A DNA stretch of 64,000 nucleotides from Clostridia bacterium (GTDB lineage Bacteria; Bacillota; Clostridia; Oscillospirales; CAG-272). The stretch lies in assembly GCA_017621695.1 (NCBI GenBank), contig JAGASP010000068.1, positions 3,858 to 67,857 of the forward strand, written 5' to 3'. Below are positions 2,712 to 63,408 of this stretch, piece by piece. The translations under genes were made by a program, and so were the position numbers. The notes under the pieces were generated by a model. The model did no database searches and had not been told where the DNA came from. It saw only the letters and a list, made by a program, of their open reading frames with translations. Every line of letters starts with the position of its first letter. Position 1 is the first letter of the stretch.

Positions 2712-2733
2712 TCCACAGAAAGGTTGATTTCCA

Positions 2734-4840: not shown

Positions 4841-4857
4841 AGGATGTATCTTATTTC

Positions 4858-5988: not shown

Positions 5989-6013
5989 ATAAAGGAACCG
6001 GAGAGAACAAGCT

Positions 6014-7198: not shown

Positions 7199-7282
7199 CT
7201 TATTTGTCAAGCCAAAGCTTTCCCCGACCTCGGTCGGTTTACATAGATCGCATCCCCTTAAAAATATGCAAAGGAGAAAAAC

Positions 7283-11770: not shown

Positions 11771-11933
11771 CCGATGAAGTGATTTCATAATCACTTCTGA
11801 CCGATAGGGCGCAGGGTGCTTCAGCACCTTGTGCCCGAATAAGAAATCTGTTCTGGGGGACTTTCCCATGGAAATAGGCTCAATATTTGGTTTGTTTGTC
11901 ATTGATACATTCGGGTTTTTATAGGAGGGGAGA

Positions 11934-12920: not shown

Positions 12921-12984
12921 GAAATCTACGTCGAATCATTCGATTGAACATAAATACTCAATTACGCTATAAAGGAGGATATAC

Positions 12985-14112: not shown

Positions 14113-14179
14113 TTCTAAGAATAATTTTGTTGATCCTTCTGTGTGGGCGTGAGCATTGAATCATTCGGAGGATATGGTT

Positions 14180-15235: not shown

Positions 15236-16384
15236 ATGAATATATCCTCTTTTGAAAAATGCGCCAATTGTGGGGCTTGCTACAGTATCTGCCCAAAGGC
15301 GGCCATTTCCATCCATCGGAACGCCTTATTCTATGAACCAAAGATAGACACCGAGCTGTGTATTGATTGCGGTGCGTGTGTCAAGGTATGCCCAGTCAAT
15401 CAAGAGATTACCGGGGTGTCGCCCATATCTGCTTGCGCTGGCTGGCACAAGGAAGAAGACGTGGTGCTGAACAGTTCCAGTGGCGGTGCGTTTTACAGCC
15501 TTTCCAAAGAGATATTGGCGCAGGGTGGTATTGTATTCGGTGCGGCGTACGCAGAAGACTGTAAGACGGTAGAGTTTGTTTCTACGGATGACGTCTCTCT
15601 AAAAATGTTGCAGAAAAGTAAATATGTTGAGAGCTTGGTAGGAACAGCATTTCAAAGGGTTAAAGCTGAGCTTGAAAAGGGAAGAATCGTTCTTTTTTGC
15701 GGCACCCCCTGTCAAGTGGCAGGGCTTAAACTCTTTTTGAGAAAAGATTATGAGATGCTTTTGACCTGTGATTTTGCTTGCGGAGGCTTGCCGTCACATA
15801 AGATTTATCAGAATTACTTGCGTGAGCTGGAGTTGAAATATCATGCTTCGGTAAAAAGCATCGATTTTCGTCCGAAAACATATGGGTGGAAACAGCATGC
15901 TATGTGGGCAACCTTTGAAAACGGGAAAGTGTATGACCGCCTTGGTGCAGAGGATCCCTATTTAAAGAGCTTCCTTTTCGGAAAGCTTACGGTTCGTGAT
16001 TATTGTCTGGAGTGTAAGTTTTCAGATCGCCACTTGTCGGATATTACCATAGCCGATTTTTGGATGCATCATAAGCTGTCTGCACTTGAACATGAAGACG
16101 GAATTTCGCTGATTTTGTGCAACACCGAAAAGGGAGAGAAGGCCGTGAACGGTATCAAAGAGCAATTTGTTTTTGAAAATCTGGACGTAGCGAAGGTATC
16201 TTATAATCATAAAGAAACGAAAACGTCCGCGCAGGACAAGGCCAAACGCATCGATTTCTTGAAAATCTATGAGGAAAACGACCTGTCGACTGCCTGTAAA
16301 CGCTTTTTTCATAGCTCACTCAAAAATAAGATCAGAAACCGTATATCCATGATAATCCACCGACGATCAAGGGGTGGGAAATGA
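15236..16384 (+). CDS. FrhB/FpoF-like (coenzyme F420 hydrogenase/dehydrogenase beta-subunit family) flavoprotein with 2x[4Fe-4S] ferredoxin domain
   Basis: 382 aa. Ferredoxin motifs are CANCGACYSICP and CIDCGACVKVCP. These are followed by SSSGGAFYSL ... FCGTPCQVAGL, typical of the FrhB family. The ATG directly follows the upstream TAA. Confidence 0.75.
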   Translation: MNISSFEKCANCGACYSICPKAAISIHRNALFYEPKIDTELCIDCGACVKVCPVNQEITGVSPISACAGWHKEEDVVLNSSSGGAFYSLSKEILAQGGIVFGAAYAEDCKTVEFVSTDDVSLKMLQKSKYVESLVGTAFQRVKAELEKGRIVLFCGTPCQVAGLKLFLRKDYEMLLTCDFACGGLPSHKIYQNYLRELELKYHASVKSIDFRPKTYGWKQHAMWATFENGKVYDRLGAEDPYLKSFLFGKLTVRDYCLECKFSDRHLSDITIADFWMHHKLSALEHEDGISLILCNTEKGEKAVNGIKEQFVFENLDVAKVSYNHKETKTSAQDKAKRIDFLKIYEENDLSTACKRFFHSSLKNKIRNRISMIIHRRSRGGK

Positions 16385-17904
16385 ATCAGAAAAAAGTTGG
16401 TGTTTTAATTTCATATTTGAATCTTGCGATGGGCATGGTGTCCAACGTTTTTCTGGTGCCGTTATTGATCGCCTCCCTTGGTGATGTGGATTATAGCTTG
16501 TATAAGGTCATGCAATCCTTTGCGGGACCGCTGTCTATGTTCCATCTGGGCATTTCTACCATTGTCACGCGGAGCGTTGTGAAATGTGCTACGTGTGAAG
16601 ACTATATGGAGAAAGATAAGAAGAACACACTGGCGCTTTCATTATTGGCATCTGTGGTCATGTCTTTGTTCGTCATGTTGGCGGGAATCGGAATGTACTT
16701 TCTTCTTCCGTCTATGTACGGTAACACTTACACGGAGGCAGGTATCGCTGTCGGACAAAAGCTTTTCTTACTCTTTGTTGCTTCTACGGTGTTTCATATG
16801 CTGACGGATGCTTTCAGTGGATGTATCGTTGGGCATGAACACTTTGTGGTCAGTTCGATGCTGCCTTTGATGAAAACGGCATTGAAGATCATTCTTTATA
16901 TCGTGTTACTCAAGTGTGGTATGGGCGTCGTTTGGGTTGTTGTAGTGGACCTTATTCTGTCCGTTTCTACATTTTCGATTACCGCGTGGTATGCCATGTT
17001 CATTCTGCGTGAAAGACCGAGGCTTTATCGATTCGACAAGCGGCAAATGATGGAGATCCTCTCTTTCGGTGGGGCGATTCTTCTTCAAACCTTTGTGAAT
17101 CAGGTTAACAACAATGTGGATACCATGATCCTTGGTATGTATATTGAAGATAAAATGGTCATTACTATGTATTCATCTGCCTTGGCCATCTACGGGATCT
17201 ATAATTCCTTGATATCTGTTGTGACAAATTTCTTTTTGCCCAGAGCGACCAAATTGGTTGCCCAAAAGGCTTCGGGAAAAGAATTAACCGATTTCGTGAT
17301 TCATCCGGGTCGGTATCAAGCCATTGTCGCTGTTGCGTGTGTCTTTGGATTTGCCTTGTTTGGCCGGAATTTTATTTCGATCTGGATCGGCACGAAGTAC
17401 ATGGACGCTTATTGGATCATACTCATGCTGATGATCCCGGTTACGGTTCCTTTGGTGGAGAATGCCATGATCGCCGTGTTGGATGCAACACTTAAGAGGA
17501 TCTATCGCTCTGCGGTGCTTGTAGTCATGGCTGTTATCAATGTGATCGCTTCAGTGTTGATGGTGCAAGTGCTGGGTTTTTGGGGTGCTGCCATCGGAAC
17601 GGTTGCCTCATTGGTGATAGGGCACGGCCTTCTGATGAATATTTATTACGCAAAAGTATTTCACATTGAAATCGGCAGAATGTTTGGCGCTATCTTTAAA
17701 GGGATCCTATCGGCGGGATTGGCTACGACAATTTTTTGCTTGCCCCTTGCTTTGTTTTTGCCTGATACGTGGTTATGTTTTGCTGTGAAGTGTGCGCTTT
17801 TTTTGATCGTCTATATGATATTTTTGTGGCTTTGGGGATTCAATTCATCCGAAAGATCTATGCTCAAAAGCATTTTGGGCAAGCTGCTTAGGGCTAAGAC
17901 GTGA
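16381..17904 (+). CDS. Wzx-type polysaccharide flippase (MOP superfamily)
   Basis: 507 aa with about 14 hydrophobic helices. ATGA overlap with the upstream gene. It is the last gene of the glycan locus. Confidence 0.8.
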   Translation: MNQKKVGVLISYLNLAMGMVSNVFLVPLLIASLGDVDYSLYKVMQSFAGPLSMFHLGISTIVTRSVVKCATCEDYMEKDKKNTLALSLLASVVMSLFVMLAGIGMYFLLPSMYGNTYTEAGIAVGQKLFLLFVASTVFHMLTDAFSGCIVGHEHFVVSSMLPLMKTALKIILYIVLLKCGMGVVWVVVVDLILSVSTFSITAWYAMFILRERPRLYRFDKRQMMEILSFGGAILLQTFVNQVNNNVDTMILGMYIEDKMVITMYSSALAIYGIYNSLISVVTNFFLPRATKLVAQKASGKELTDFVIHPGRYQAIVAVACVFGFALFGRNFISIWIGTKYMDAYWIILMLMIPVTVPLVENAMIAVLDATLKRIYRSAVLVVMAVINVIASVLMVQVLGFWGAAIGTVASLVIGHGLLMNIYYAKVFHIEIGRMFGAIFKGILSAGLATTIFCLPLALFLPDTWLCFAVKCALFLIVYMIFLWLWGFNSSERSMLKSILGKLLRAKT

Positions 17905-18001
17905 TTTGAATAATACTATTGTGAAATTAAATCAATTACACAGTGCGGGGACTTTTGGGGAGTATAAGTCTGTACTGATACCGCACTTGCAGGAGGTTAT
18001 C

Positions 18002-21650: not shown

Positions 21651-22244
21651 ATGCTGATGATACTCGAGCTCATCCAGACCATTGAGAATGATGACGAACG
21701 GGAAGTAGTCGAGCGGATTTTTCATCAATACTATAAATATATGATGGCCAGAGCCCAAAGCATTCTCAATAACCATCATGATGCGGAAGATGCCGTCATG
21801 GAGACGTTCTGCCGCATATCCGAGAACGTGAAGCAGTTTGTGCATCTGGAAAAAACGGAAACCGCCGCGCTTGTCAGTATTTACACGCGAAACGTTGCGA
21901 TCAACCTATACAATCGCAAAAAGAAGCAACGGGAAATATTTGATATGAGCGGAGAGATAGAGTCATGTCAGGCTTGTGGAGATCCTATGTCGGGAAATCC
22001 GCAAGCTCTTATTGTTGACGACGAAACCGTTGACATTGTGTACAACGCGCTTGACCGATTGGAGGCCAAATACAGGGATGCCATTGTACTCAAATATTAT
22101 AACCACTTGAAGAACGTGGAAATTGCCAATATATTGGGGCTGGAGGTAAATACGGTCAACAGCCATATATTCCGAGCAAAAAGCAAGCTCAGGGAGATTC
22201 TGGGGGAGGAAGGGTATGAAAGAATTACATATGGAAAAATTTGA
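21651..22244 (+). CDS. RNA polymerase sigma factor, sigma-70 family (ECF-like/clostridial group)
   Basis: 197 aa. Region 2 is DAEDAVMETFCRISENV ... IYTRNVAINLYNRKKK. The region 4 HTH is YRDAIVLKYYNHLKNVEIANILGLEVNTVNSHIFRAKSKLREIL. Confidence 0.8.
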   Translation: MLMILELIQTIENDDEREVVERIFHQYYKYMMARAQSILNNHHDAEDAVMETFCRISENVKQFVHLEKTETAALVSIYTRNVAINLYNRKKKQREIFDMSGEIESCQACGDPMSGNPQALIVDDETVDIVYNALDRLEAKYRDAIVLKYYNHLKNVEIANILGLEVNTVNSHIFRAKSKLREILGEEGYERITYGKI

Positions 22245-22917
22245 TGCTCTGCTTTCGCTGGCATCGGCCGAATGTGTCAAGGAAGAAGCCGAGGCTTTTC
22301 TGTCGGCGGATATCTCGGAGATCGGGGACAATCCCCAAATGCTCCGAAAGGTGTTAGGCGGATCCCGCAAGGGCAAGTGGCACACCGTCAAGATCATTTT
22401 GCTGGTTGCGCTGCTGTGTATGTCCATTGCGTTCACCGCCTGTATGCTTGTGCCTGAGATCAGACAGGCGATCTGGAATGTTTTGGTGCGGGGTCATGAC
22501 GACCACGTGGAGATTAACTTTGAAGAAAACAGTGAGAAGAACAGTATAACGCCTGTGGCGGAATACCCGAATACGATTGAGAAAAAGATGGAATTGACAT
22601 ATGTGCCGGAGGGGTATGCCATAAATGATGAGCGTTTATCTCCAATACAGTATTCGATTGGTTATAGCAACAGCAAGGGAGAATGGAAATTTACGATTTC
22701 GCAAAGTGTTATAGACATTATTGATTCTTTTGTCAATGAATATGAGGGAAAAATTTCAAGTATTGAAATTGATGGCTTTGATGCGATTTTGATAGAATGT
22801 AATGAAGGCAGCTTTTCTCACAAACTAATTTGGCAGGACGATCACTACCGATATATTGTTTGTGGATATTTCCCTTCCACAAATGAAATCATTAAAATTG
22901 CAGAAGGAGTTATATAA
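22216..22917 (+). CDS. Putative anti-sigma factor / DUF4367-like single-pass membrane protein
   Basis: 233 aa with a 29-nt overlap with the sigma gene. One TM helix (VKIILLVALLCMSIAFTACMLV). The extracytoplasmic C-domain is of the type commonly paired with such sigma factors. The 3' half is AT-rich. Confidence 0.6.
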   Translation: MKELHMEKFDALLSLASAECVKEEAEAFLSADISEIGDNPQMLRKVLGGSRKGKWHTVKIILLVALLCMSIAFTACMLVPEIRQAIWNVLVRGHDDHVEINFEENSEKNSITPVAEYPNTIEKKMELTYVPEGYAINDERLSPIQYSIGYSNSKGEWKFTISQSVIDIIDSFVNEYEGKISSIEIDGFDAILIECNEGSFSHKLIWQDDHYRYIVCGYFPSTNEIIKIAEGVI

Positions 22918-22943
22918 AAACAAAATCCGACTTGATATGATGT

Positions 22944-23369
22944 TTATTGCGAGCATGTGCGATATTTAGTTTTGGAAATGGTTTCATCGACATTATTTCT
23001 TGTAACGGTAAAAAAGTAATCAGCCCGATAATAAGCACGATTAAAAGCGTTAAAGCGGCAACTTACCAATGTGCTTATTCCATAATAGGTATCATGTTCT
23101 TCGCCTACAAGAACCCACGAATCTCCGACTTGTCTGTATACATATATGTCTACGACAATTTTATTAACACCTGGTTCTCCGATTACATTTGCTTCGGCAT
23201 ATCCGTATCCGTCATCAAGAAACGATAGTGCTAATGTTATAGCCGCCGTATTTTGCCAATTCGGTTCCACATCCGGCTTCACCACCGCTGCCTGAATCGG
23301 CACAGCCATGCAGAGGAGGAGCGTCAAAACGGCCATAGCTACCGCTAACATCTTAAAACGTACTTTCAT
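22944..23369 (-). CDS. Secreted hypothetical protein
   Basis: 141 aa with signal peptide MKVRFKMLAVAMAVLTLLLCMAVPIQA. No recognised domain. AT-rich and convergent with the anti-sigma gene. Confidence 0.6.
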   Translation of the reverse strand: MKVRFKMLAVAMAVLTLLLCMAVPIQAAVVKPDVEPNWQNTAAITLALSFLDDGYGYAEANVIGEPGVNKIVVDIYVYRQVGDSWVLVGEEHDTYYGISTLVSCRFNAFNRAYYRADYFFTVTRNNVDETISKTKYRTCSQ

Positions 23370-23508
23370 TCTTTTTTACCTCTTTTCTTAAATATACCGC
23401 GCGGCAGATCGCCTGCTTTGCACGGTTCATACATACTAACAAACGAATCCCCAAAAAATTGCAGAAAAACAGAAAAATTTTTTCTTTTTTGAAAATGATA
23501 ACAGAAAA

Positions 23509-23552
23509 GGGCTGCTCAAATGCGTCTGGTCATTTGAGCAGCCCTGCTTTTA
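23509..23552 (-). terminator. Strong hairpin, possible (bidirectional) terminator/insulator
   Basis: GGGCTGCTCAAATG - 8 nt - CATTTGAGCAGCCC forms a 14-bp perfect stem. It is followed by TTTTCTGTT on the minus strand and TGCTTTTATT on the plus strand. Confidence 0.45.
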
Positions 23553-23605
23553 TTCCATACTTGCGGTGACTGTGCCGATTTTTTGCGTTGCTTTATGGGT
23601 GAGAT

Positions 23606-23658
23606 AAAAAAACCTTACTAACCCGCCTACTATAAAAAGTAGGTTCAAATTAGTAAGG
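23606..23658 (-). terminator. Intrinsic terminator immediately 3' of tRNA-Gln
   Basis: Minus strand reads CCTTACTAA..CCTACT-TTTTAT-AGTAGG..TTAGTAAGG followed by TTTTTTT. It starts 3 nt after the tRNA CCA end. Confidence 0.55.
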
Positions 23659-23660
23659 TC

Positions 23661-23735
23661 TGGCTGGGATGGCCGGATTTGAACCGACGGATGCGGGAGT
23701 CAAAGTCCCGTGCCTTACCGCTTGGCGACATCCCA
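23661..23735 (-). tRNA. tRNA-Gln (anticodon UUG)
   Basis: Minus strand: TGGGATGTCGCCAAGCGGTAAGGCACGGGACTTTGACTCCCGCATCCGTCGGTTCAAATCCGGCCATCCCAGCCA. Acceptor stem is TGGGATG/CATCCCA. Anticodon stem is CGGGA/TCCCG with loop CTTTGAC. T-loop is GGTTCAAATCC. The CCA is encoded. Confidence 0.92.
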
Positions 23736-23752
23736 ATATGATGTACCGTAGT

Positions 23753-23781
23753 ATTGTACCACAAAATCATTTCTTTGTCAA
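23753..23781 (-). promoter_or_regulatory. Sigma-A promoter of tRNA-Gln
   Basis: Minus strand reads TTGACA - 17 nt - TACAAT with a TGn extension (TGGTACAAT). The -10 element ends 17 nt upstream of the tRNA 5' end. Confidence 0.6.
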
Positions 23782-23864
23782 GTCCTGTTTTGAGAAAAGC
23801 CTGCATTTTGAAAACAAAAAGTGTAGGGAACCTCTAAACTGCCGCGCGGTGTGGCCGAGGGGGC

Positions 23865-23893
23865 TTGACAATTTTCGGAGAATGCGGTATAAT
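23865..23893 (+). promoter_or_regulatory. Sigma-A promoter of the marR-ABC exporter operon
   Basis: TTGACA (23865-23870) - 17 nt - TATAAT (23888-23893), located 60 nt upstream of the marR ATG. Confidence 0.6.
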
Positions 23894-23903
23894 GATTAAC
23901 ATC

Positions 23904-23914
23904 TTAACGGTTAA
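23904..23914. promoter_or_regulatory. Palindrome TTAAC-G-GTTAA, candidate MarR operator
   Basis: Perfect 5+1+5 palindrome, 11 nt downstream of the -10 box. An extra TTAAC half-site lies at 23896-23900. The position fits autorepression by the adjacent MarR. Confidence 0.35.
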
Positions 23915-23953
23915 CCTCTTGACTTTCAACTATTTAACAGGAAGGGTGTTTAC

Positions 23954-24421
23954 ATGAAGAAAAACTGTCAGCATTGCTCAACTCCCGAGGGCATGGCCAT
24001 GCATCTCTTCATCCGCGTGTCGCATATGCATCATGCGGCTATTGAAGGGCGTGTCATGAAGCTGGGATTTCACCACAGCCAGCATCGTATGCTCATGCAC
24101 TTGGCGAAATATGAGCACATCCCGTCGCAAAAGGAATTGGCGGACGCCATGGGTATCACCCCTGCCGCCGTGACGACGACCCTCAAGCGCCTGGAAAGGG
24201 AAGGGTACATCACCCGTACCGTCACCGACGAGGACAATCGCCGCAATGAGATCCGCATCACCGACGCGGGACTCAAGGCCATCAACGAAAGCCGTGTCCT
24301 GTTTGACTCGGTAGATCGCCAAATGTTCAAAGGCATTTCCGAGGACGAGCTCAAGGCGTTTACGGCCACCTTGGAACGGATGAGAGATAACCTTGGCGAA
24401 GAAATTTCTCGCGAAGCATGA
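23954..24421 (+). CDS. MarR-family transcriptional regulator
   Basis: 155 aa. Winged-helix pattern is SQHRMLMHLAKYEHIPSQKELADAMGITPAAVTTTLKRLEREGYITR ... DNRRNEIRITDAG. Confidence 0.85.
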   Translation: MKKNCQHCSTPEGMAMHLFIRVSHMHHAAIEGRVMKLGFHHSQHRMLMHLAKYEHIPSQKELADAMGITPAAVTTTLKRLEREGYITRTVTDEDNRRNEIRITDAGLKAINESRVLFDSVDRQMFKGISEDELKAFTATLERMRDNLGEEISREA

Positions 24422-43040: not shown

Positions 43041-44534
43041 TTACTTGTTGACCTTTCTCAGAATGTTGGTGATGGCTCTGTCAAAGCGTCTGGCGTTGGA
43101 AGCGTATTTGGAAGAGAAGTTGTCATTGTTTCCGTTAACGCACTCAGAGAAGAGGTTGGTAAAACCAAGCTCACTGAAGTAAATTGCCATATCGTAAATA
43201 CGGTTCTGGAAGATGATATCCAGCATCTCGGCAGAGTCAGGGTCGCGGACGTTACGGCTGGTCAGCATGGTGTCGTAGTACGCAGGCTTAACGAGCTTGG
43301 CAGAGAGCACGACGAAGGTTTCGAGAACCTCTGCGAACTGCTGCTTTTCAATCTCATCCGCAATGGAGGTGGGGATGCTCAGAGTAGAGCCGATGTCATG
43401 GGTCCAGGTGTTGTAATTTTCCTGTTCCTTGCTGTACTTGGGGATCGGAACAACGCCGTAGTCACCCTCCATGGTTTGGTTCAACGCACGGAGATAGCTG
43501 GCTGCCTCGCAGTAGAAGAGGGCGCGGCCTTCCACAAATACGTCTTTGGAAAGAGCTTCATTGCCTGCGGCGGCAACGTAAGACGCGTTATTATCGTGAA
43601 CGATGGTCTGTGCCAGTTCCAGAACCTGTGTGGCCTTTTCCATGCTGTTGCCAAGGGCAAGCTCGGGGAAGTCCTTGTCCCTGCTGTTAACAATGTACTG
43701 CAAGCCCGCACCGTAGAAGAAGGTGTTACCGATGGAGCCGGGGGAGGAGAAGCCGTAGGTATCGTTGTGATCCCATGTGCCGTCACCGTTTTCTGCGGAG
43801 GCGTTCTGGATGATGGAGTTGAAGTGCTCCAGAGTCCATTCCTTGTTTCTGACGGTGGTATAAGGATCGGGGATCTGTGCCTCCTGCTGCAGGGTCTTGT
43901 TGAACATCATAACGAAGGTTACGTCGTCGTCAACGATGTTGTGGGCGCCGTTCATGAAGAATACGTTGCCTTCCAACGCGAAATCCAGTGTACCGGGATC
44001 CCACCAGGGCTGCTCGTAATCAATGTCCATGCTCAGGTAGTTGTAAAGATAACCCGAAGTGGCCATGCTCGTGGTCGTGGATGCAGGTGCGGAGATCAGC
44101 GCAAAGTCGCCCGTATTGGTTTGCGTTTCGGCAATGACCTTGCCGTTGATGCTGGGGTTGGGGGTGGGGATCGGAACGATTGTGAGATGGCAACGCTCTT
44201 CAAGAAGCGTATTTCTCTCGTAAACTGCGTCGTTGATGACAGCGGCGCTGGTCTGGTCGGTGGCTTCCTTTTCGGCTTCAATTTCCTCGGAATAGCCGGC
44301 AATGTCGCTGACGTACAGGAAACCGAAGTCTCCGCCGCCCCAGTTGATGTCAGTCAGGGCTTCCAGCGCTTCGTCGATGGGACTTTGGGTAGCGCCCTCG
44401 GCAAGCGTTTCGCCGGTGCTCTTGCCTGTATCGTTGTCTTCGTCTTCATTTTCGGTGTTGACACCGCAGGCCGTAAAGACACCGAGAAGCATCAGGGAAG
44501 CAAGAAGCAGGCTCAGAATTTTACTGAATTTCAT
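43041..44534 (-). CDS. Large ABC-type solute-binding lipoprotein (family 1, carbohydrate-type), orphan
   Basis: 497 aa with lipoprotein signal MKFSKILSLLLASLMLLGVFTAC. No permease or ATPase genes are adjacent. Confidence 0.75.
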   Translation of the reverse strand: MKFSKILSLLLASLMLLGVFTACGVNTENEDEDNDTGKSTGETLAEGATQSPIDEALEALTDINWGGGDFGFLYVSDIAGYSEEIEAEKEATDQTSAAVINDAVYERNTLLEERCHLTIVPIPTPNPSINGKVIAETQTNTGDFALISAPASTTTSMATSGYLYNYLSMDIDYEQPWWDPGTLDFALEGNVFFMNGAHNIVDDDVTFVMMFNKTLQQEAQIPDPYTTVRNKEWTLEHFNSIIQNASAENGDGTWDHNDTYGFSSPGSIGNTFFYGAGLQYIVNSRDKDFPELALGNSMEKATQVLELAQTIVHDNNASYVAAAGNEALSKDVFVEGRALFYCEAASYLRALNQTMEGDYGVVPIPKYSKEQENYNTWTHDIGSTLSIPTSIADEIEKQQFAEVLETFVVLSAKLVKPAYYDTMLTSRNVRDPDSAEMLDIIFQNRIYDMAIYFSELGFTNLFSECVNGNNDNFSSKYASNARRFDRAITNILRKVNK

Positions 44535-50338: not shown

Positions 50339-51292
50339 ATGAGCACGCAACATATTACCCAGACCCTCACCCAAAAGCTCACCGACAACATCAGCCTTGT
50401 CCTCTTCGGCAAGGAGGCCGTTATCAAGACCTTCCTCTGCGCCTTTTTCAGCGGCGGTCACGTCCTCTTGGAGGACGTCCCCGGTACGGGTAAGACCAGC
50501 CTGGTGCGCGCGCTGGCCGATTCCTTCGGCGGCGACTACAAGCGCGTGCAGTTCACTCCCGACCTGCTTCCCTCGGATATCACGGGTATCAACTATTACC
50601 GCCAGCATACGGGAGAATTCTCTCTCCGCAAGGGCCCCGTGTTTACCAACCTGTTTTTGGCCGACGAGATCAACCGCGCCACCCCCCGTACCCAATCCGC
50701 TCTTTTGGAGTGTATGGAGGAACGCCAGGTGACCATCGACGGCGAGACACTGCCCCTTTCCGACATTTTCATGGTCATGGCCACCATGAACCCCCTGGAG
50801 TTCCAGGGTACCTTCCCTCTGCCCGAGGCGCAGGTGGACAGATTCATGATGAAGCTGCATCTCGGCTATCCCGATCTGGCAGGGGAGACCCGCATCGTGG
50901 ATAAGATCTGCACGGGGGTCAAGGGAGAAGCGGTCAGTACCGTGGCGACCCTGGAGGATGTCCGCGCCGCCCGCGAAGAGATCAATGCCGTACATATCAG
51001 CCCCGACGTGGCGGATTATATGGTGCGCCTCGTCCGTTCGACCCGCGATCACGAGAAGATCAAGATGGGTGTCAGCCCCCGTGGCGTGGTTGCCCTGACC
51101 CGCGCGACCCGTGCGTGGGCGGCCATGCACGGCCGTGACCACGTCCTGCCCGATGACGTCAAGGATCTGGCCATCCCCCTGCTGGCCCACCGTATCATTA
51201 CCCGCACGGGCAGCAGCCTCCAGCTTTCCCAGTCGAGCGAGGCATTGATCGAATATCTTCTGACCAAGGTGCCCGTCGTCCTCGACAAGTAA
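50339..51292 (+). CDS. MoxR-family AAA+ ATPase
   Basis: 317 aa. Walker A is EDVPGTGKTS and Walker B is LADEINRATPRTQSALLECMEE. Confidence 0.9.
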   Translation: MSTQHITQTLTQKLTDNISLVLFGKEAVIKTFLCAFFSGGHVLLEDVPGTGKTSLVRALADSFGGDYKRVQFTPDLLPSDITGINYYRQHTGEFSLRKGPVFTNLFLADEINRATPRTQSALLECMEERQVTIDGETLPLSDIFMVMATMNPLEFQGTFPLPEAQVDRFMMKLHLGYPDLAGETRIVDKICTGVKGEAVSTVATLEDVRAAREEINAVHISPDVADYMVRLVRSTRDHEKIKMGVSPRGVVALTRATRAWAAMHGRDHVLPDDVKDLAIPLLAHRIITRTGSSLQLSQSSEALIEYLLTKVPVVLDK

Positions 51293-51309
51293 AATCCAAG
51301 GAGGACTCT

Positions 51310-52542
51310 ATGAGTTGGTTCGTCATTGCCTTTCTTCTGGCCTTCACAGCGGTGTATTTCCTGCAAAAGAAGCGCTGGCGCAAGGTCGTGGAAACCGATC
51401 TGTCTTACCGTTTTGAATTCAGCACCGACGAGGTCTTTGCCGGAGGCTATCTGTACCTCGACCAGGTGGTGATCAACAACGGCGAGCAAACGATTTCCTT
51501 TCTGAAAATGGAGACCCTGCTCCCACAGGGACTCAAGGTGATCTTGGCCGGCGAGGATGAAAAGGGAAGGGATGAGATCGTGCAATCCGTGCAGTCGGTA
51601 TTCCTTCTGCCGCCCCACGGGCAGGTCACGCGGCGTTGGCGCGTCGTGGCCGAGACCCGCGGGCATTATACGGCGCAGAGCGTGCAGGTGCACGTCATTT
51701 CCCATGATGCCGTGGGCATGAGCACATTTTCTACCCGAATGCAGCCCGAGGTATCCGCCAAGGATCACCTGACGGTGCTTCCTGTCGCCTCCGAGTGGCT
51801 CACCCAGATGGCGCTGGCTCCCTCCTTTGCGGGAGAGCGCACCACGTCCAAGGGACTTGTACAGGATCCCATGTCCATCTGCGGTGTCCGTGAGTATGAG
51901 CCCTTCGATCCTCTCAACACCGTGGATTGGAAGCAGACCGCCCGTCTTGGCCGCATGATGGTCAAGAAAATGGAGGTGCAGCAGAATGACAGCTATCATA
52001 TCGTTTTGAATATGCAGTCTGTCATCATTGAAAAGGATTTCCCGGAGATCAGCGCGCCCGCCTACATCGAGGACTGCATTTCCCTGTGCGCCTCTCTTCT
52101 GGACAGCGCCATTCGCCGCAATATCCCCGTCCGCCTCATGGCCAATACCGAGCCGAGCGAGCTCTTGGGCGGCGGCCGCGTCCACGACGGTGCGCTGGGC
52201 TGTCATATCTTTGCCAGCGAGCAGTTCACCGACAAAAGCTCGGTCATCGAGGCCTACCGCATTCTGGCCAAGCTCCCCATGAAGCTGTCTCTTCCCACAG
52301 AGCGGCTGTTGGAGGACATCATGGAAAACCCCCATCTCTATGCGCAGGGGGGAAACATCGTGTTCGTTACCGCCTTTCTGGATCAGCGCATGGTCAATTT
52401 CCACCGTGCTATGGCCGATCAGGGCGTCAACGTGATCTTCTACGTCATGACGTCGTATCAGAATGCGCTGACGTTGCCTCCCGAGGTAGAGGCATACTTC
52501 CGTCACAGTCAATGGAAGGGAGGCTTGGGTTATGCATCATAA
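51310..52542 (+). CDS. DUF58 domain-containing protein (MoxR-associated, VWA-like)
   Basis: 410 aa with an N-terminal TM helix. The DUF58 signature region is GVREYEPFDPLNTVDWKQTARLGRMMVKK. Confidence 0.85.
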   Translation: MSWFVIAFLLAFTAVYFLQKKRWRKVVETDLSYRFEFSTDEVFAGGYLYLDQVVINNGEQTISFLKMETLLPQGLKVILAGEDEKGRDEIVQSVQSVFLLPPHGQVTRRWRVVAETRGHYTAQSVQVHVISHDAVGMSTFSTRMQPEVSAKDHLTVLPVASEWLTQMALAPSFAGERTTSKGLVQDPMSICGVREYEPFDPLNTVDWKQTARLGRMMVKKMEVQQNDSYHIVLNMQSVIIEKDFPEISAPAYIEDCISLCASLLDSAIRRNIPVRLMANTEPSELLGGGRVHDGALGCHIFASEQFTDKSSVIEAYRILAKLPMKLSLPTERLLEDIMENPHLYAQGGNIVFVTAFLDQRMVNFHRAMADQGVNVIFYVMTSYQNALTLPPEVEAYFRHSQWKGGLGYAS

Positions 52543-54040
52543 AACAGTTCGTCCCGCCAAGCTCCGGAATAAGCGCACCGTGAAACGCTCGGTTTCCAAG
52601 CTGACGGGAGAGATCAGATCCAACGCGGTACAGCACAAAAAGCTCCCCTCTACCGACAAATGGCGCTTGCGTTGGCTGAAATTTTATAAGCTGCTCGCTT
52701 GCATTGCCATTTGCTCCATCGTCATGCCTTATTTTGAGGTGCTGGTGTCGGTGGGCGCGGGTACCTACGCGACTGTGTTTACATGGATCGCGTCGGCGCT
52801 TCTCTTTGCCGCGGGGTACGGGATCCACGCAGGTGTCCGACGCTTGTTCATCAAGCCCGGCTCGGAAGAGGAATTCAGCTTTTCCTTTGAGACCAAATGG
52901 GAGTTTTCTTCCCCGACAACCCTCATTCCCTCGCTTGTGCTTTGCGCACTGGTCTCTGTCGCGTTCAGCTTTGGTGCGGGGCAGATATTGCAGGTATTGC
53001 TTTACCCTTATTACAATGCCGAGGTGGGCTTCCCTCTCATGATGATGGCCTGTATCGTTGCCTCGGTGCTGGGCGCGTTGCTCGTGCCCTTCCAGTTCCA
53101 CCAGCTCTGCTCCCTGCGCACCCTGATCGAATGCCTCTTTGCCTTCGGTGTGCCCTTTGGAATTTTTACCTTTTGGGCCAACGGTGTCAATGTATTGTTC
53201 GCGACGTGCGTGTTGGTCTATGCGCTGTGCCTGTGTATCCTGATGAATCAGGAATACGTCATCAAGCCGTCCTACTCCTCCAAAACCTGCTATGCAACGC
53301 GCGAGCTTCGTATGCAGGGAATGTCGCAGGCGGTCACGCTGTGGCTGATGGCATTTTTGACAACGATCATGATCCTTGGCCTGTTGGCCGTACTGGTGAT
53401 CCCCATTCGCTTCTTTATGTACATCGACATGAATCAGGTGCTGGATTTCCCCTTGAAGGGAATGCCTGCGCTCAACGGCGGTATTTTCTTTCTTGGCGTG
53501 GTGACGATTGCCGTTCTTTCGGTGCTTGCCATCATTCGCTTTGTCCGCCCACGCAATCTTAAGTATTGGGAGAAGATTTTGCGTGAGGTCTGGGGCAGGA
53601 TCATGGGCTTTTTCTTCCGCTTGCAGTACAGACACGGCAAGAAGAAGTACGATGATATGGATTTCAAGGAGATCGTCGGAGAACGCCCCAAGAAAACCCA
53701 CTACGTAGATACCGTTACGCAGACCCAAACGGTCACTCGCGAGCTTCCGCTGGGTTACCGTGCGTTTCTCAAAGAGCTCCACGCGCAGGGGGATCTCAAT
53801 GGGCAGTACCGTTATGCGTACGAGGTGCTGATGACGGATCTGTATCACGCCCACATCGGTATTGCCAAATGCCAGACCCCGCTTGAAATGGCCGACGTTA
53901 TTCGCCGCAAGACCAACATCCGCGAGATGGATCGTCTGACCGAAACCTTTACGGCGGTCGTTTACGGCAAGGACGGTAAGGCTTCCCAAAGCGACGTGGA
54001 TGCTGTGTGCGGAATTTTGAGAGACAGATTAAAAGCGTGA
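52532..54040 (+). CDS. Multi-pass membrane protein with C-terminal DUF4129-like domain
   Basis: 502 aa with an 11-nt overlap with the DUF58 gene. About 9 TM helices. The C-terminal region YRYAYEVLMTDLYHAHIGIAKCQTPLEMADVIRRK ... TETFTAVVYGK is DUF4129-like. No transglutaminase Cys-His-Asp core is seen. Confidence 0.7.
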   Translation: MHHKTVRPAKLRNKRTVKRSVSKLTGEIRSNAVQHKKLPSTDKWRLRWLKFYKLLACIAICSIVMPYFEVLVSVGAGTYATVFTWIASALLFAAGYGIHAGVRRLFIKPGSEEEFSFSFETKWEFSSPTTLIPSLVLCALVSVAFSFGAGQILQVLLYPYYNAEVGFPLMMMACIVASVLGALLVPFQFHQLCSLRTLIECLFAFGVPFGIFTFWANGVNVLFATCVLVYALCLCILMNQEYVIKPSYSSKTCYATRELRMQGMSQAVTLWLMAFLTTIMILGLLAVLVIPIRFFMYIDMNQVLDFPLKGMPALNGGIFFLGVVTIAVLSVLAIIRFVRPRNLKYWEKILREVWGRIMGFFFRLQYRHGKKKYDDMDFKEIVGERPKKTHYVDTVTQTQTVTRELPLGYRAFLKELHAQGDLNGQYRYAYEVLMTDLYHAHIGIAKCQTPLEMADVIRRKTNIREMDRLTETFTAVVYGKDGKASQSDVDAVCGILRDRLKA

Positions 54041-54161: not shown

Positions 54162-55694
54162 ATGAAAAAAATTCTTGCTGTAGCATTGATTTTGTCTCTG
54201 CTCATGTCTTTGGCCGTTGTGGGCGCTTCCGCTCTGTCTCCCAACGTGGATGCATCTACGTGGGAAAGCCTCGAGTTGAAGGCTCTGTACGTTCAGTCCG
54301 ATGCAGATATTTACTCTGATCTGGACGAGGATTATTGGGAGTATTGGTGGGAGGACGAGGTCCCCGAGTCCGACGATGCATGGCTCATGGCCAGCACCAT
54401 CAATATGCGCGGCTTTGCCATGTCCCCCGACGGTCGCTATCTCTACATGGGTCAGCTGAACGGCGGCACCGGTGTTCGCGGCGTTGTGGTCTACGACACC
54501 CAAAAGTGTGTCGTGACCGACCTGTATTACCATTATGACGGCGAGGCCGGCTTGGAAGGGTCCCCTTATTCCTACGCCAAGGGCATTGCCGCTGATGATC
54601 GCGGTTACGTATATGTCGGCTATGCCTTCTCCCTGAACTATAATCTTGTCAATCTGGGTATTGCACAGCAGAAGGAAGACGGTGCGCTGGAAGAGGTTTC
54701 CCTGACGGCGGCTTACGCATTCGGCGAGCCCGGTGATGCCGGCGGTATCCACGTTGGTGTTAACGGCGTTGACGTTGTCAAGGTTGGCGACAGCTACTAT
54801 TGCTACGTCATGATCAATTATGACTACGATGCACTGTACTGCTTCGACGTGACCGATCCCGCTAACCCCAAGCTGAACAAGGATTTTGGTGACAACGGTT
54901 TGATCAACTTCAGCGATGATGCCAACCCCGTGGTCGCTCCCGGCTATACTCTTAAGGAAGGTCAGTATATGGACGTGGATGACGACGGTGTCATCTGGTT
55001 GGTCGTCAATACCAACGAGGGTATGGACGGTGTGATGAAGATCTCTCCCAACGGTAGCTCCTGTGTGTCCTTTGCGGAGCTTCAGGGTGTCTACTCCGTC
55101 GAGCATGAGGGTGGATTCCTGCTTTGCGGTATGAAGGACGGTTCTGCTGTGGTCGTTTTGGATGACGCTTCCTTCGAGCAGGTCGCCTCTGTTCCCGTGG
55201 TTGCCGATTACGGAGACAGAATTGTGCGTGTGCTGGTCGTAAATGACGTGCTCTTCGTGGCTGATGCCGGCAACGATACCCACGGCAACAATGCAGTTCA
55301 CGCGGCGCCTCTGACCGCTGACGGACAGGTATTCTTTGACAGCCTGGTTGCCAACTTCGCAAAGAGCGGGGAAGAGCCCGAGGAGGATTCTTCTGAGGCC
55401 GAGTCTACCCCTGCTGTATCTGATCCCGGCGAATCTCAGCCTACAGAATCCGACCCTGTAGAGTCCGGTTCTGTGGAATCCGAGCCTGTGTCCGAGTCTG
55501 AGTCTGTCTCTACTCCCGCAGAATCCGAGTCTGCTTCAGCTCCCGTAGCGTCCGACTCTGCCGAGGATTCCTCTGCCGCGGAGTCTGCTTCCAAGGCAGA
55601 AGAGAAGTCCGGTTGCGGTGCAACCGTTCTCGGTTCCGCCTCCGTTCTCATGCTCGCTATGGCTGCTGCCGTCGTTCTGAAAAAGAAGGATTGA
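54162..55694 (+). CDS. Secreted putative beta-propeller surface protein with acidic linker and Cys-containing C-terminal tripartite tail
   Basis: ATG 54162 follows a GGAGAG RBS. Signal peptide is MKKILAVALILSLLMSLAVVGASA. A repetitive beta-rich body of about 400 aa follows. Next is an S/E/P/A acidic linker of about 110 aa. The tail is AEEKSGCGATVLGSASVLMLAMAAAVVLKKKD. There is no LPXTG. Confidence 0.8.
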   Translation: MKKILAVALILSLLMSLAVVGASALSPNVDASTWESLELKALYVQSDADIYSDLDEDYWEYWWEDEVPESDDAWLMASTINMRGFAMSPDGRYLYMGQLNGGTGVRGVVVYDTQKCVVTDLYYHYDGEAGLEGSPYSYAKGIAADDRGYVYVGYAFSLNYNLVNLGIAQQKEDGALEEVSLTAAYAFGEPGDAGGIHVGVNGVDVVKVGDSYYCYVMINYDYDALYCFDVTDPANPKLNKDFGDNGLINFSDDANPVVAPGYTLKEGQYMDVDDDGVIWLVVNTNEGMDGVMKISPNGSSCVSFAELQGVYSVEHEGGFLLCGMKDGSAVVVLDDASFEQVASVPVVADYGDRIVRVLVVNDVLFVADAGNDTHGNNAVHAAPLTADGQVFFDSLVANFAKSGEEPEEDSSEAESTPAVSDPGESQPTESDPVESGSVESEPVSESESVSTPAESESASAPVASDSAEDSSAAESASKAEEKSGCGATVLGSASVLMLAMAAAVVLKKKD

Positions 55695-55711
55695 TTGCAT
55701 AAAAATACCCC

Positions 55712-55748
55712 AAAAGCGAGGGAGCTTTCAAAGCTCCCTCGCTTTTTT
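55712..55748 (+). terminator. Intrinsic terminator after the surface-protein gene
   Basis: GCGAGGGAGCTT-TCA-AAGCTCCCTCGC followed by TTTTTT. Confidence 0.75.
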
Positions 55749-55844
55749 AATATATGACATAAAAATATTCAATTTCTATTCATATTTTTGCGCTATAATG
55801 ATACACAAGTTTTTTTGACTGATCTCCACATGAAAGGAATGCCT

Positions 55845-56663
55845 ATGTATCCATATAAAATATTGGGAGACATTGACCTTTACAGCATTTTCATGCTGAT
55901 CGGTGTGCTTGTCTGCCTCGTGTTCATCCGCCTTTTGTCGGATCTTCGGAAAATGCGCGCAACGTGGACAAATCTCGCTTTGTTCAATGCCGTTTTGGCC
56001 GTGGTTCTCGGTTACGGCGGCGCAGTTTTATTCCAAGCCTTTTATAACTTCATGGCAGACGGCGTGTTTGAAATTGCCAAAAATACGGGCGCTACCTTCT
56101 ACGGCGGCCTCATCGGCGGAACCGCAATGTTTATCGTGATCTACTTTATTGCAGGTCACTTTCTCTTCAAGGACGGTTACCACATTCCCCATCTGCGGAC
56201 AGCTTCGGATATGGCTGCCCCCTGCATCACGGTTGCCCATGCCTTCGGTCGCTTGGGATGCCTCATGGCAGGCTGTTGCCACGGCGCAAAAACCGATGCT
56301 TGGTACGGTATCGAGATGAAGTATCTCGGGTATAAGGTCGTGCCCGTGCAGCTTTTTGAGGCGCTTTTCCTGTTTGCTCTCTGCGCTGTGACCTTTATTC
56401 TGTTTGTGAAAAAGAAAAAATACATTCTGCCGCTGTATATGGCTGCATATGCCATCTGGAGGTTTGTGGCAGAGTATCTGCGCGCGGATGACAGAGGCGC
56501 GACGCTTGTGGACTTCTGGTCTCCTTCTCAGCTCATCTCTGTCCTGCTGCTCTCCGGCGGTATCCTGCTTTTTGCCATCGAGCTGTGGATAGACCGCAGA
56601 AAAAAAGGAGACGGGATAACTGCACCCGAGGCAGCTCCTTCGACTCCCGAAGAGGACGCATGA
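55845..56663 (+). CDS. lgt: Prolipoprotein diacylglyceryl transferase (Lgt) family protein, divergent signature
   Basis: The ORF is open from 55788, and in-frame ATGs lie at 55830, 55839 and 55845. AAAGGAA plus 6 nt favours 55845 (MYPYKILGDIDLYSIFML). Lgt-like motifs are FYGGLIGG and AHAFGRLGCLMAGCCHG. The canonical GR(I/W)GNFxNxExxG is replaced by a Cys-rich version. A TATAAT box lies at 55794-55799. Confidence 0.75.
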   Translation: MYPYKILGDIDLYSIFMLIGVLVCLVFIRLLSDLRKMRATWTNLALFNAVLAVVLGYGGAVLFQAFYNFMADGVFEIAKNTGATFYGGLIGGTAMFIVIYFIAGHFLFKDGYHIPHLRTASDMAAPCITVAHAFGRLGCLMAGCCHGAKTDAWYGIEMKYLGYKVVPVQLFEALFLFALCAVTFILFVKKKKYILPLYMAAYAIWRFVAEYLRADDRGATLVDFWSPSQLISVLLLSGGILLFAIELWIDRRKKGDGITAPEAAPSTPEEDA

Positions 56664-56664
56664 T

Positions 56665-57528
56665 ATGAAAAATGAATTTGATTTCAGTCGTGCCCCCGAG
56701 CCGCCTCCCACGCGGGATGTGCGACGCATCGTAGCCATCGTGCTGACCCTAATCGGCATGGCCGCCCTCTTGTTTTTTGAGATCGGCAAGCCTGTTCTTT
56801 CCGAGGACGCGACCTTGCAGTCCCTCTATACCATGACCGCCACGCGCGGTATCGGCGGTATTGTGTTTTTGGCGATCCTTGTATATCTCGGATATCGCGT
56901 GATGAACCCGTTGCAAAAGCCCTTTGGAAAAGCGTTGCTGTTTTGTCTGCCTGCCGCGCTTGTGGTGGTCAACAATATGCCCATTCTCTCTATGATTTGG
57001 GGAGATGCTTACTTTGTCCACGGCGAGCCTTGGTACATCCTGTGGTTCGCGCTGGAGTGCTTTGCCATCGGCTTGTTTGAAGAGACCGCCTTTCGCGGTG
57101 TGGCACTGCTTTTGATCGCGGAGAAGAGAAGAACAACAAAAAAAGGACTGTTTATCAGCATTCTTTTGTCGTCGGCTGTGTTTGGCGTGATCCATTTAGC
57201 CAACATTCTGGCAGGCGCGTCCCCGGGCGCTGTGTTCCTGCAGATCGGGTATTCTTTCCTCATCGGTGCTATGTGCTCGGTGGTTCTTTTGAAAACAGGA
57301 AACCTGTGGCTGTGCGTGATCCTTCATGCGGTCTATGATTTTTCGGGCAATCTGATGCCCACCCTCGGTGCGGGAACCTGGTGGGATATCCCTACCGTGA
57401 TCTTTACTGCGGTACTTGCCGTATGTACCACCGTGTTTTACGTGGTGGCGTTTATTCGGCTGGATCCGCAGGAGACCGAGCGTCTCTATCCCCCCAAAAA
57501 TTCGCAAGACAATGTTAATGCAACATAA
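56665..57528 (+). CDS. CPBP-family intramembrane glutamic endopeptidase (CAAX/Rce1-like)
   Basis: 287 aa. The ATG lies 1 nt after the lgt-like stop (TGAtATG). Motifs are EETAFRG (EExxxR), FGVIHL (FxxxH) and HAVYDF (HxxxD). Confidence 0.85.
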   Translation: MKNEFDFSRAPEPPPTRDVRRIVAIVLTLIGMAALLFFEIGKPVLSEDATLQSLYTMTATRGIGGIVFLAILVYLGYRVMNPLQKPFGKALLFCLPAALVVVNNMPILSMIWGDAYFVHGEPWYILWFALECFAIGLFEETAFRGVALLLIAEKRRTTKKGLFISILLSSAVFGVIHLANILAGASPGAVFLQIGYSFLIGAMCSVVLLKTGNLWLCVILHAVYDFSGNLMPTLGAGTWWDIPTVIFTAVLAVCTTVFYVVAFIRLDPQETERLYPPKNSQDNVNAT

Positions 57529-61998: not shown

Positions 61999-63408
61999 TC
62001 ATTCTTCGACTTGGGTCTCCACAGGCATAAAGGGCGCATTCGTCAGCTTGTCACAATGACGGTAGGCTTGCAGTCCAACTCCGTCGGCGGATGTCACGCC
62101 GGGGGCGGTGACGGTTTCCAGCGAGATGCATCCCGCGAAGCAGGAATTGGGAATGCGGGTCACATTTTCGGGGAGGGATGCGGATTTGAGATACAGACAA
62201 TCCATAAAGGCCTGTACGCCGATTTCGGAAAGTCCGCTTCCGAATTCTACCGTCTGTAAGCGGATGCAGCTGTGGAAGGCATCGTCTCCGATGCTTGTCA
62301 GACTGTCGGGCAGCTTGACGGACAAAAGCTTCTTGCAACCGTAGAAGGCGCGAAGGCCGATGGATGTGACGGTTTCGGGAATGGTGATGCGAGAGAGGCA
62401 GGACACCTCAAAAAAGGCGTTGGAGGGAATGGCGGTGCAACCATCCAAAAGAATGATCTCCTGCAGGGATGCGGGAACAAAGCCTGCTGTAAAGGTATAG
62501 GACGCAGCACCGAAGAGATAGCCGAGATAGGTGTTTTCGGTAGCACTACCGCCCACAAAGGGAAGGGTCATGGCGGTGAGAGAACCGCAGCCCTCCAGAA
62601 CACCTTCGCCGATCGACGTGACGGTGGCGGGAAGGTCAAAGCGAAGCAGAGCCATGCAGTCGGTCAGCGCACGGGATCCGATGCTTTGCAATGCGGTGTC
62701 TGCGAGGTTCAGATATTCCAGCGAGGAGCAACCCCAAAAAGCGAAGCTTCCCATGTTGGTCAGGGCTTGAGGGAGCCGTACGCAGGTGATGCTGTTACAG
62801 TCAAAGAATGCGTAGTCGGGGATACTCCGGAGCTTGTCTCCCAAAATGACGGCGGTCAGGGAATCGGGCACCTCGGAGGCGTTGATCTCATAGGATGCAG
62901 CGCCGAACAGCGCACCGAAATAGGGGTGCTCCTGCACCTCAATGACAGGGGTGCGCAGGGTTTCCAAGGCAGTGCATTTTTTGAAAGCACCCAAACCAAT
63001 GGTGGTCACGCTGTCAGGAATATAGAGGGCAGAGATGCCGGTTTGCTCGGCAAATGCGTTTTCGTCGATGACCGTGACGGGAAGACCGTCAATGCTGTCG
63101 GGCAGGACGACGATGCTTTCATCTCCCGTATAGCCTGTCAGCGTGATCTCCTGCGTGTCTTGGTTGACGCTGTAGGTCAGCACTTCGGGAGAGACGGGAG
63201 AGGCCTCTGCGAATATGGCATCCAGACGCTCTTCGTACAACTGCAGAACGCTATCCTGCATGGTACGGTCGTCAGAAAGATCGGGCAGGGTGACAGCCGA
63301 CGGATCGGCGGGGGTATATGTCGGTGCTTTGGCACAGCCGGCAAGAAGCAACGTGCAAAAAAGGGCAAGAGCGGTCAAAGATCGCAATTTCATTTTCATG
63401 TTTTCCAT
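61999..63408 (-). CDS. BspA-type leucine-rich-repeat lipoprotein
   Basis: 469 aa with lipoprotein signal LFCTLLLAGC. It carries many repeats of about 23 aa (IP.SVTSIG..AF.GC.SL..V.LP), which is the LRR_5 pattern. Confidence 0.8.
   Translation of the reverse strand: MENMKMKLRSLTALALFCTLLLAGCAKAPTYTPADPSAVTLPDLSDDRTMQDSVLQLYEERLDAIFAEASPVSPEVLTYSVNQDTQEITLTGYTGDESIVVLPDSIDGLPVTVIDENAFAEQTGISALYIPDSVTTIGLGAFKKCTALETLRTPVIEVQEHPYFGALFGAASYEINASEVPDSLTAVILGDKLRSIPDYAFFDCNSITCVRLPQALTNMGSFAFWGCSSLEYLNLADTALQSIGSRALTDCMALLRFDLPATVTSIGEGVLEGCGSLTAMTLPFVGGSATENTYLGYLFGAASYTFTAGFVPASLQEIILLDGCTAIPSNAFFEVSCLSRITIPETVTSIGLRAFYGCKKLLSVKLPDSLTSIGDDAFHSCIRLQTVEFGSGLSEIGVQAFMDCLYLKSASLPENVTRIPNSCFAGCISLETVTAPGVTSADGVGLQAYRHCDKLTNAPFMPVETQVEE

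Follow-up and report, generated by a model that had tools for sequence, protein, structure and literature searches.

The window analysed here, a 64,000-nucleotide stretch of contig JAGASP010000068.1 from a Clostridia bacterium (assembly GCA_017621695.1; a metagenome scaffold of an uncultured gut Clostridium), carries three neighboring forward-strand genes for a secreted surface protein with a Gly-Cys tail at its C-terminus (the cargo), a protein of the Lgt family and a CPBP (Rce1-like) protease. Judging from the sequences and by analogy with the MYXO-CTERM/myxosortase systems, we put at about even the chance that tail protein, Lgt-family enzyme and CPBP protease together make up a three-part C-terminal sorting module of monoderm gut Clostridia. 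The three open reading frames (ORFs) were confirmed at the coordinates given in the preliminary description of this DNA, and the features on which the argument draws are as follows (aa, amino acids; AF2, AlphaFold2).

54162-55694, + strand: cargo gene, 510 aa, ORF call
54162-54233, + strand: N-terminal signal peptide MKKILAVALILSLLMSLAVVGASA/LS, classical type-I, no lipobox Cys, read from the sequence
55365-55610, + strand: acidic Ser/Glu/Pro-rich disordered linker, residues ~402-483, from the AF2 model and the sequence
55608-55691, + strand: putative sorting tail, S-G-C485-G-A, hydrophobic helix T488-L506 and basic end KKKD; tail profile E = 1.3e-10
55712-55746, strand not assigned: perfect 16-bp G+C-rich hairpin and then a T-run, just 3' of the cargo stop codon
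55845-56663, + strand: Lgt-family gene, 272 aa, start according to public gene calls and homolog coverage
56247-56285, + strand: signature G135-R-L-G-C139-L-M-A-G-C144-C145-H-G147, equivalent to E. coli G142-R143-L-G-N146-F-I-N-G-E151-L-W-G154
56665-57528, + strand: CPBP (Rce1-like) gene, 287 aa
57079-57096, + strand: CPBP motif 1, E139-E140-T-A-F-R144, conserved in 74/75 homologs
57181-57195, + strand: CPBP motif 2, F173-G-V-I-H177, conserved in 75/75 homologs
57325-57339, + strand: CPBP motif 3, H221-A-V-Y-D225, with H221 conserved in 75/75 homologs

The reading frame of the Lgt-family gene is open already from 55788, and 1 nt separates its stop codon from the ATG of the CPBP gene (56663/56665), as had been described. 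The hairpin and T-run are likely an intrinsic terminator between the cargo gene and the lgt-CPBP unit, and the cargo gene and the pair are therefore probably separate transcription units.

Based on its sequence and model, we expect the cargo to be a secreted surface protein in which a type-I signal peptide is followed by a beta-propeller-like passenger, then by an acidic disordered linker and finally by the C-terminal tail with the sorting Cys. The AF2 model has a mean predicted local distance difference test (pLDDT) score of 80, with values <50 from residue 409 onward, and in a structure comparison against the PDB its passenger region matched beta-propellers. The acidic linker, earlier put at ~110 aa, comes to ~82 residues (402-483) in the model. 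No Pfam or NCBIfam match was found for the cargo in profile scans, and sequence searches of the cargo and of the CPBP protein against the PDB gave nothing useful. The C-terminus reads ...EEKSGCGATVLGSASVLMLAMAAAVVLKKKD, with the tail Cys, C485, encoded at 55614-55616; the sequence thus agrees with the three-part Cys/helix/KKKD tail of the preliminary description and lacks LPXTG. This tail is kept in 120/120 of the best homologs of the cargo (52-96% identity).

To place the tail among its relatives we used the loci of the best 80 of 521 GTDB species genomes that matched an alignment of the Lgt-like protein; these genomes are uncultured Clostridia/Oscillospiraceae metagenome-assembled genomes with 45-73% identity in Lgt. 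A profile built from endings found by scanning the ORF ends in these loci recovered 32 tails at E <= 6e-6 among ~8,950 ORF ends, while the next match had E = 0.46, a clear gap which indicates that the tail is more than chance. In the 38 tails that were aligned, the consensus is [KED]-x-G-C-[GKA]-[SGA]-x-[VLI] followed by a membrane helix and then typically [RK]KK[KD]D, with the Cys present in 38/38, G-C in 36/38 and 23-32 residues between the Cys and the protein end. The proteins that carry it are 335 to 1,931 aa long, some with CBM9 or F5/8-type-C domains, and they form ~12 groups that are unrelated by BLAST once the last 110 residues are removed. A type-I signal peptide was seen on every complete tail carrier, and a lipobox on none.

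None of the NCBIfam sorting-domain models reached its cut-off on these tails. MYXO-CTERM models were among the few matches, all of them weak (TIGR03382, 8.3 to 11.1 bits, below its cut-off of 15.85); the LPXTG (TIGR01167) and Rumino_NPXTG models also stayed below cut-off, TIGR01167 having no match on the tail in the window, and NCBIfam 20.0 holds no model for the Gly-Cys tail. The separation of the profile, the ~12 passenger families, the signal peptides and the lack of an NCBIfam model together argue that the Gly-Cys tail is a modular Cys-type C-terminal sorting signal that is absent from the curated models, as far as sequence can tell. Read from the membrane outward, as [VLI]-x-[SGA]-[GKA]-C, the tail also bears a suggestive likeness to a reversed lipobox with one extra residue.

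Two of the loci (L026, 1-11156, and L036, 3803-17396) hold three tail genes each, encoding proteins of 342 to 1,931 aa, on both sides of the lgt-CPBP pair, so that the sorting genes sit within a small island of surface-protein genes.

The CPBP protein scored 62.5 bits against the Pfam Rce1-like family (PF02517; cut-off 22.4) and has the EExxxR, FxxxH and HxxxD/N motifs of that family. The motifs EETAFRG, FGVIH and HAVYD, previously described as intact, were confirmed, and 74-75 of 75 homologs share them, so that the protein appears active and can be considered a candidate sorting protease of the glutamic intramembrane type. In an NCBIfam scan of 13 CPBP members, MrtJ was matched in 12/13, Mrt_core and ABC_perm_CPBP in 11/13 each, and MrtS, MrtP and MrtC in three each; all of these matches were far below cut-off, the CPBP of the window having 23.7 bits against 100 for NF040914 Mrt_core. 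Myxosortase models were the most frequent best matches, which points, only weakly, to myxosortases as its closest curated relatives.

The gene upstream of the CPBP gene encodes a member of the Lgt family based on its match to Pfam LGT (PF01790), with 101.6 bits against a gathering cut-off of 24.9, and it misses both Lgt equivalog models (TIGR00544, 70 bits vs 118.9; NF000778, 109.9 bits vs 334). The sole structural match to its AF2 model was E. coli Lgt (5AZB; TM-score 0.63, E = 2e-6), consistent with an Lgt fold. In a profile-to-PDB alignment to 5AZB, the signature region GRLGCLMAGCCHG lies over GRLGNFINGELWG of the E. coli protein (GFGRLGCLMAGCCYG over E. coli GAGRLGNFINGELWG). The alignment agrees with the claim that the residues equivalent to N146 and E151 are replaced by Cys, and the protein accordingly does not fit the canonical signature G-R-x-G-N-F-x-N-x-E-x-x-G. 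The Cys signature is kept in 120/120 close Lgt-like homologs, and R136, R206, Y202 and E210, the equivalents of E. coli R143, R239, Y235 and E243, are invariant among the aligned homologs. With the phosphate-binding Arg pair kept and the Lgt fold predicted, the protein appears to be active, and it is a candidate diacylglyceryl transferase. Variants of Lgt with N146C and with E151C/D are on record (PMC13251419). In Leptospira the sole Lgt lacks the PROSITE Lgt signature (PMC4758666), and the N146C enzyme from that genus gave partial complementation of E. coli (PMC13251419). We rejected the Tyr at the position of E. coli H103 as a sign of divergence, since Tyr is the normal residue there among Firmicutes Lgts (PMC13251419).

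Fusions of Lgt to CPBP were not found among the ~430 proteins collected. In three loci (L030, 9989-11557; L031, 6326-7879; L037, 6261-7427) the Lgt-like proteins have cytoplasmic C-terminal extensions of 120-250 aa, which are acidic, rich in Ala, Pro and Glu, and are not CPBP fusions. In P0139 and P0144 a Cys-variant Lgt runs on into a galactokinase-like domain, and in L072 a galK-like gene (11773-12939) lies just downstream; these joins could be real fusions or artifacts of gene calling.

The pairing of the two enzymes is widespread. In 75/80 GTDB loci the CPBP gene is immediately downstream of lgt on the same strand, and mostly the two overlap or abut, the dominant offsets from the lgt stop to the nearest in-frame CPBP start being -4, -8, -1, +1 and +7. 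For comparison, 80 metagenome loci were collected by a contig scan with a 10-sequence alignment of distant Cys-variant Lgts, and ~20/80 of these have an adjacent CPBP gene in varying orientation. In some loci it is downstream of lgt, whereas it precedes lgt in L125, L131 and L140 and converges with it in L107, L112, L126, L128 and L129. New tail proteins were found beside the metagenome pairs as well, namely in L109, L121 and L132 (KKSGCGSF...SRRK), in L107 (two) and in L112 (one). The tail genes are arranged in several independent ways: between ftsK and lgt, immediately before lgt, or right behind the CPBP gene. The preliminary description had named an unconserved lgt-CPBP adjacency and a lack of other tail proteins as findings that would speak against its proposal; in the related loci the adjacency is conserved, and many unrelated proteins with such tails came out of the scan of ORF ends.

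To compare tails with proteases at the level of the locus, we pooled both sets (160 loci) and counted the tails within 6-10 kb. Tails were found near lgt in 29/95 CPBP-positive and 2/65 CPBP-negative loci (Fisher p = 8.5e-6, a value that overstates independence because the loci are phylogenetically related). Both of the CPBP-negative cases are doubtful, as the contig ends just after lgt in L091 and L101 is a false positive. A protease thus co-occurs with Cys-helix-basic tail proteins at the locus level, the pattern by which a myxosortase-type system is judged.

A plainer explanation of these counts is that the tail is a C-terminal transmembrane anchor with a juxtamembrane Gly-Cys that serves, for example, in a disulfide or in packing, and that it lies next to the pair through inherited synteny of no functional meaning. 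In favor of this, one orthologous family in one conserved position accounts for 17 of the ~38 tail proteins, so that the adjacency signal goes back in part to a single event; moreover, 70% of the loci have no tail gene nearby. Inherited synteny does not account, however, for the ~12 unrelated passenger families or for the several positions that they occupy around the pair, distant metagenome lineages included, and the several arrangements and many cargo families argue instead for repeated association of tail and pair. There is also no convincing tail in the CPBP-negative loci, and the layout fits known cleaved Cys-type signals, with MYXO-CTERM, weak and below cut-off, among the few NCBIfam matches. 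We consider a simple anchor improbable.

The signature of the Lgt is not peculiar to these loci. When 1.84 billion cluster representatives were searched exhaustively for relatives of the Lgt-like protein, all full-length sequences among the best 150 had GR-x-GC-x3-GCC-[YHF]-G, down to 31% identity. The Cys signature is therefore the hallmark of a large, deep subfamily of Lgt and no local oddity. It does not mark a specialized enzyme, as it occurs throughout the subfamily, including in an operon of housekeeping type (L097). Two distant relatives, L130 and L148, have a canonical Lgt (GRWGNFFNQEVYG and GRWGNYFNQEAFG) in addition to the Cys-variant, with the two lgt genes (the canonical one encoding GRWGNF/YFNQE) <6 kb apart (L130, 5992-12750; L148, 6001-12779). 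The canonical gene is beside pncB in both and beside lspA too in L130. The Cys-variant can therefore be a true paralog. The arrangements in L097, L130 and L148 suggest an old tandem duplication followed by differential loss. Outside L130 and L148, no second Lgt was found in the 64-kb window or in ~1.3 Mb of related loci.

Several observations weigh against the three-part module, in addition to the relatedness of the loci and the low myxosortase scores given above. A tail gene was found within 6-10 kb in only ~30% of loci. In L097 (5893-9841) the Cys-variant lgt is the first gene in an overlapping lgt-pncB-lspA-rluD string. Five close relatives (46-48% identity; L051, L068, L072, L077 and L084, at ~9950-11400 in each) have no CPBP gene. 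In most of them lgt comes after an ABC-F ATPase gene and is followed by the gene for a small membrane protein and then by polA and coaE, and none of the five has a tail protein near lgt. In many genomes the lgt-CPBP pair comes directly after ftsK, a position that suggests a vertically inherited core gene. Furthermore, MrtX processed a MYXO-CTERM tail in E. coli, whose only Lgt is canonical (PMC11980579), and no special Lgt was therefore needed for MYXO-CTERM there. The Cys-variant may, then, be a mere housekeeping Lgt.

The L097 string and the position beside ftsK also speak for an explanation in which the CPBP protease would sort the Gly-Cys tails by itself, the adjacent Lgt being only a housekeeping enzyme for N-terminal lipoproteins and the tail Cys being modified by another enzyme or not at all. 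An Lgt is required in any case by the lipobox proteins of the window, which include two classical lipoproteins, the ORFs at 61999-63408 (-), with an LLAGC lipobox and LRR_5 repeats per the public gene calls, and at 43041-44534 (-), with an FTAC lipobox; ordinary Lgt and Lsp activity must therefore be required in this organism. It also suits a protease acting alone that the tails follow CPBP and not Lgt as such, that the CPBP-less relatives have a housekeeping-like context, and that the JDVT-CTERM/MrtJ cassette consists of two genes only, without Lgt (PMC11980579). What this explanation leaves aside is the coupling of lgt to CPBP in 75/80 genomes and the re-linking of the two, differently oriented, in distant lineages. 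Nor does any further candidate for a lipid transferase recur in these loci, and the presence of a canonical lgt in L130 and L148 means that the Cys-variant is not always the housekeeping copy. Taking both sides together, we regard sorting by CPBP alone as unlikely, while giving it real weight.

Under the three-part module, the Lgt may be a dedicated paralog or may be the only Lgt of the lineage, serving lipoboxes with LspA and tails with CPBP. The chance of a second lgt in this genome is about equal either way, and the module is compatible with both cases. Even if the Lgt is the only one, its translational coupling to CPBP instead of LspA still suggests that Lgt makes another class of products, which CPBP would cut.

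It is also conceivable that the Lgt-CPBP pair serves N-terminal lipoproteins and that the Gly-Cys tails are plain, uncleaved membrane anchors, for which there is a precedent in LnsB, a CPBP-like protein required for N-acylation of lipoproteins (PMC7387801). The lspA gene is indeed <=5 kb from the pair in L034 and L045. LnsB, however, is without the catalytic motifs that are invariant here, and no LnsA (NlpC/P60) was noted beside the pair, although no search aimed at LnsA was made. Service to lipoproteins would also leave unexplained both the enrichment of tails beside the pair and the near-invariant G-C, and we think it very improbable.

If the three-part module is correct, the following sequence of events can be proposed. 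Lgt S-diacylglycerylates the thiol of a Cys, and Rce1-type proteases cleave after a lipidated Cys. As its signal peptide and tail are read, the cargo would be exported by Sec in the ordinary manner and would at first be anchored by its C-terminal helix, KKKD lying in the cytoplasm and G-C at the outer face of the membrane. The Lgt-family enzyme would then move diacylglycerol from phosphatidylglycerol to C485, and the translationally coupled CPBP protease would cut just after the modified Cys, as Rce1 does after prenyl-Cys, to shed the helix and basic end. The mature beta-propeller protein would stay cell-bound by its C-terminal lipid, the acidic linker of ~80 residues spanning the wall. We infer the lipidation and cleavage steps from the chemistry of Lgt and Rce1 and from the published MYXO-CTERM model, in which lipidation precedes cleavage by a CPBP protease and the transferase is given as "unknown," with Lgt as the leading candidate (PMC11980579). 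That the Lgt-family enzyme S-diacylglycerylates the near-C-terminal Cys here, and perhaps in all branches of the Cys-variant subfamily that are linked to CPBP, is a more tentative proposal than the module itself, and one that we think somewhat less likely than not. The lipidate-then-cut route of the preliminary description has thus kept its components, the pair and the tails, all borne out by comparative genomics, and an order of steps that fits the MYXO-CTERM model (PMC11980579), and has lost the support that it drew from the divergence of the signature.

The interval from ftsK to the cargo gene holds an operon (50339-54040) whose genes encode a MoxR-type AAA ATPase (AAA_3), a protein of the DUF58 family and a multi-pass membrane protein of 502 aa that ends in a weak DUF4129 match; among the relatives, it occupies this place only in the closest genomes (L007-L010). 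Elsewhere in the window, the G+C content falls to 0.40-0.46 at 2000-8000, 12000-18000 and 22000-24000, compared to ~0.55 in the remainder, and a tRNA-Gln gene (23661-23735, -) is inside one of these dips. These low-G+C stretches may be acquired islands.

Literature searches found no description of the Lgt-CPBP pair or of the Gly-Cys tail. That CPBP proteases process Cys-type C-terminal signals was a prediction of 2023, and confirmation for MrtX followed in 2025 (PMC11980579). The loci described here extend Cys-type sorting, as a prediction, to monoderm Firmicutes, and they present an Lgt-family gene coupled to a myxosortase-like protease with the presumed substrates alongside, recurring in many genomes, so that the question of Cys lipidation could be tested with three genes. 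They also suggest what a large Lgt subfamily without the classical signature may do, be it as its function or as a second one, and the uncurated sorting signal could be used to better annotate the surface proteins, many of them carbohydrate-binding, of uncultured rumen and gut Clostridia. If the proposal is true, the Lgt-family protein would be the first enzyme identified as lipidating Cys-type C-terminal signals, filling a gap in the MYXO-CTERM/myxosortase model, and the route would constitute a sortase-independent "C-terminal lipoprotein" pathway in Gram-positive bacteria.

Of the known systems, the putative module is most similar to MYXO-CTERM/MrtX of Myxococcota and the related JDVT-CTERM/MrtJ, Synerg-CTERM/MrtS and CGP-CTERM/MrtA systems, which have the same tail of G-C Cys, helix and basic cluster and a CPBP glutamic intramembrane protease as the cognate enzyme. 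As with MrtJ, the sorting enzyme is encoded beside its presumed targets, and as with MrtX, the proposed order is lipidation and then cleavage. It differs in that the host is a monoderm Clostridium, so that there is no outer membrane or type II secretion system step, in that the basic cluster is Lys-rich (RKKD/KKKD) and not Arg-rich, and in that tail and protease are below every NCBIfam cut-off. An Lgt gene translationally coupled to the protease, as present here, is not described for the known myxosortase systems.

The Lgt-LspA pathway shares with the proposed module an Lgt-family enzyme with the Lgt fold and conserved Arg pair, a Cys at the outer face of the membrane that adjoins a hydrophobic helix and is flanked by small residues, and, as predicted here, the subsequent removal of that helix by a dedicated intramembrane protease. 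In these loci, however, the helix is C-terminal and runs in the opposite direction, the signature is G-C-[GKA]-[SGA] rather than L-[AS]-[GA]-C, the protease is CPBP and not the aspartic LspA, and the product would bear its lipid at the C-terminus. Similarly, in eukaryotic and archaeal CAAX processing a near-C-terminal Cys is lipidated first and an Rce1-family (PF02517) protease then cuts, the order that we predict for the tails. The enzyme that donates the lipid would be Lgt (diacylglycerol) here and is a prenyltransferase there, the Cys is followed here by ~25 residues, a membrane helix among them, compared to three there, and the reaction here would occur on the extracytoplasmic face.

The Gly-Cys tails also resemble LPXTG/sortase signals in being three-part C-terminal signals that follow a long linker on secreted surface proteins. 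They have no LPXTG or NPXTG, no sortase gene was noted in the locus, and the predicted attachment is to membrane lipid, unlike the attachment of sortase substrates to peptidoglycan. Lastly, the Lgts of Leptospira and M. smegmatis (MSMEG_5408) likewise have Cys in place of N146 and have lost the PROSITE Lgt signature (PMC13251419, PMC4758666). Those enzymes are regarded as serving N-terminal lipoproteins, in a main or a minor capacity, unlike the role proposed here, and coupling to a CPBP protease or to Cys-tailed proteins, which is not reported for either, is present in the Clostridia loci.

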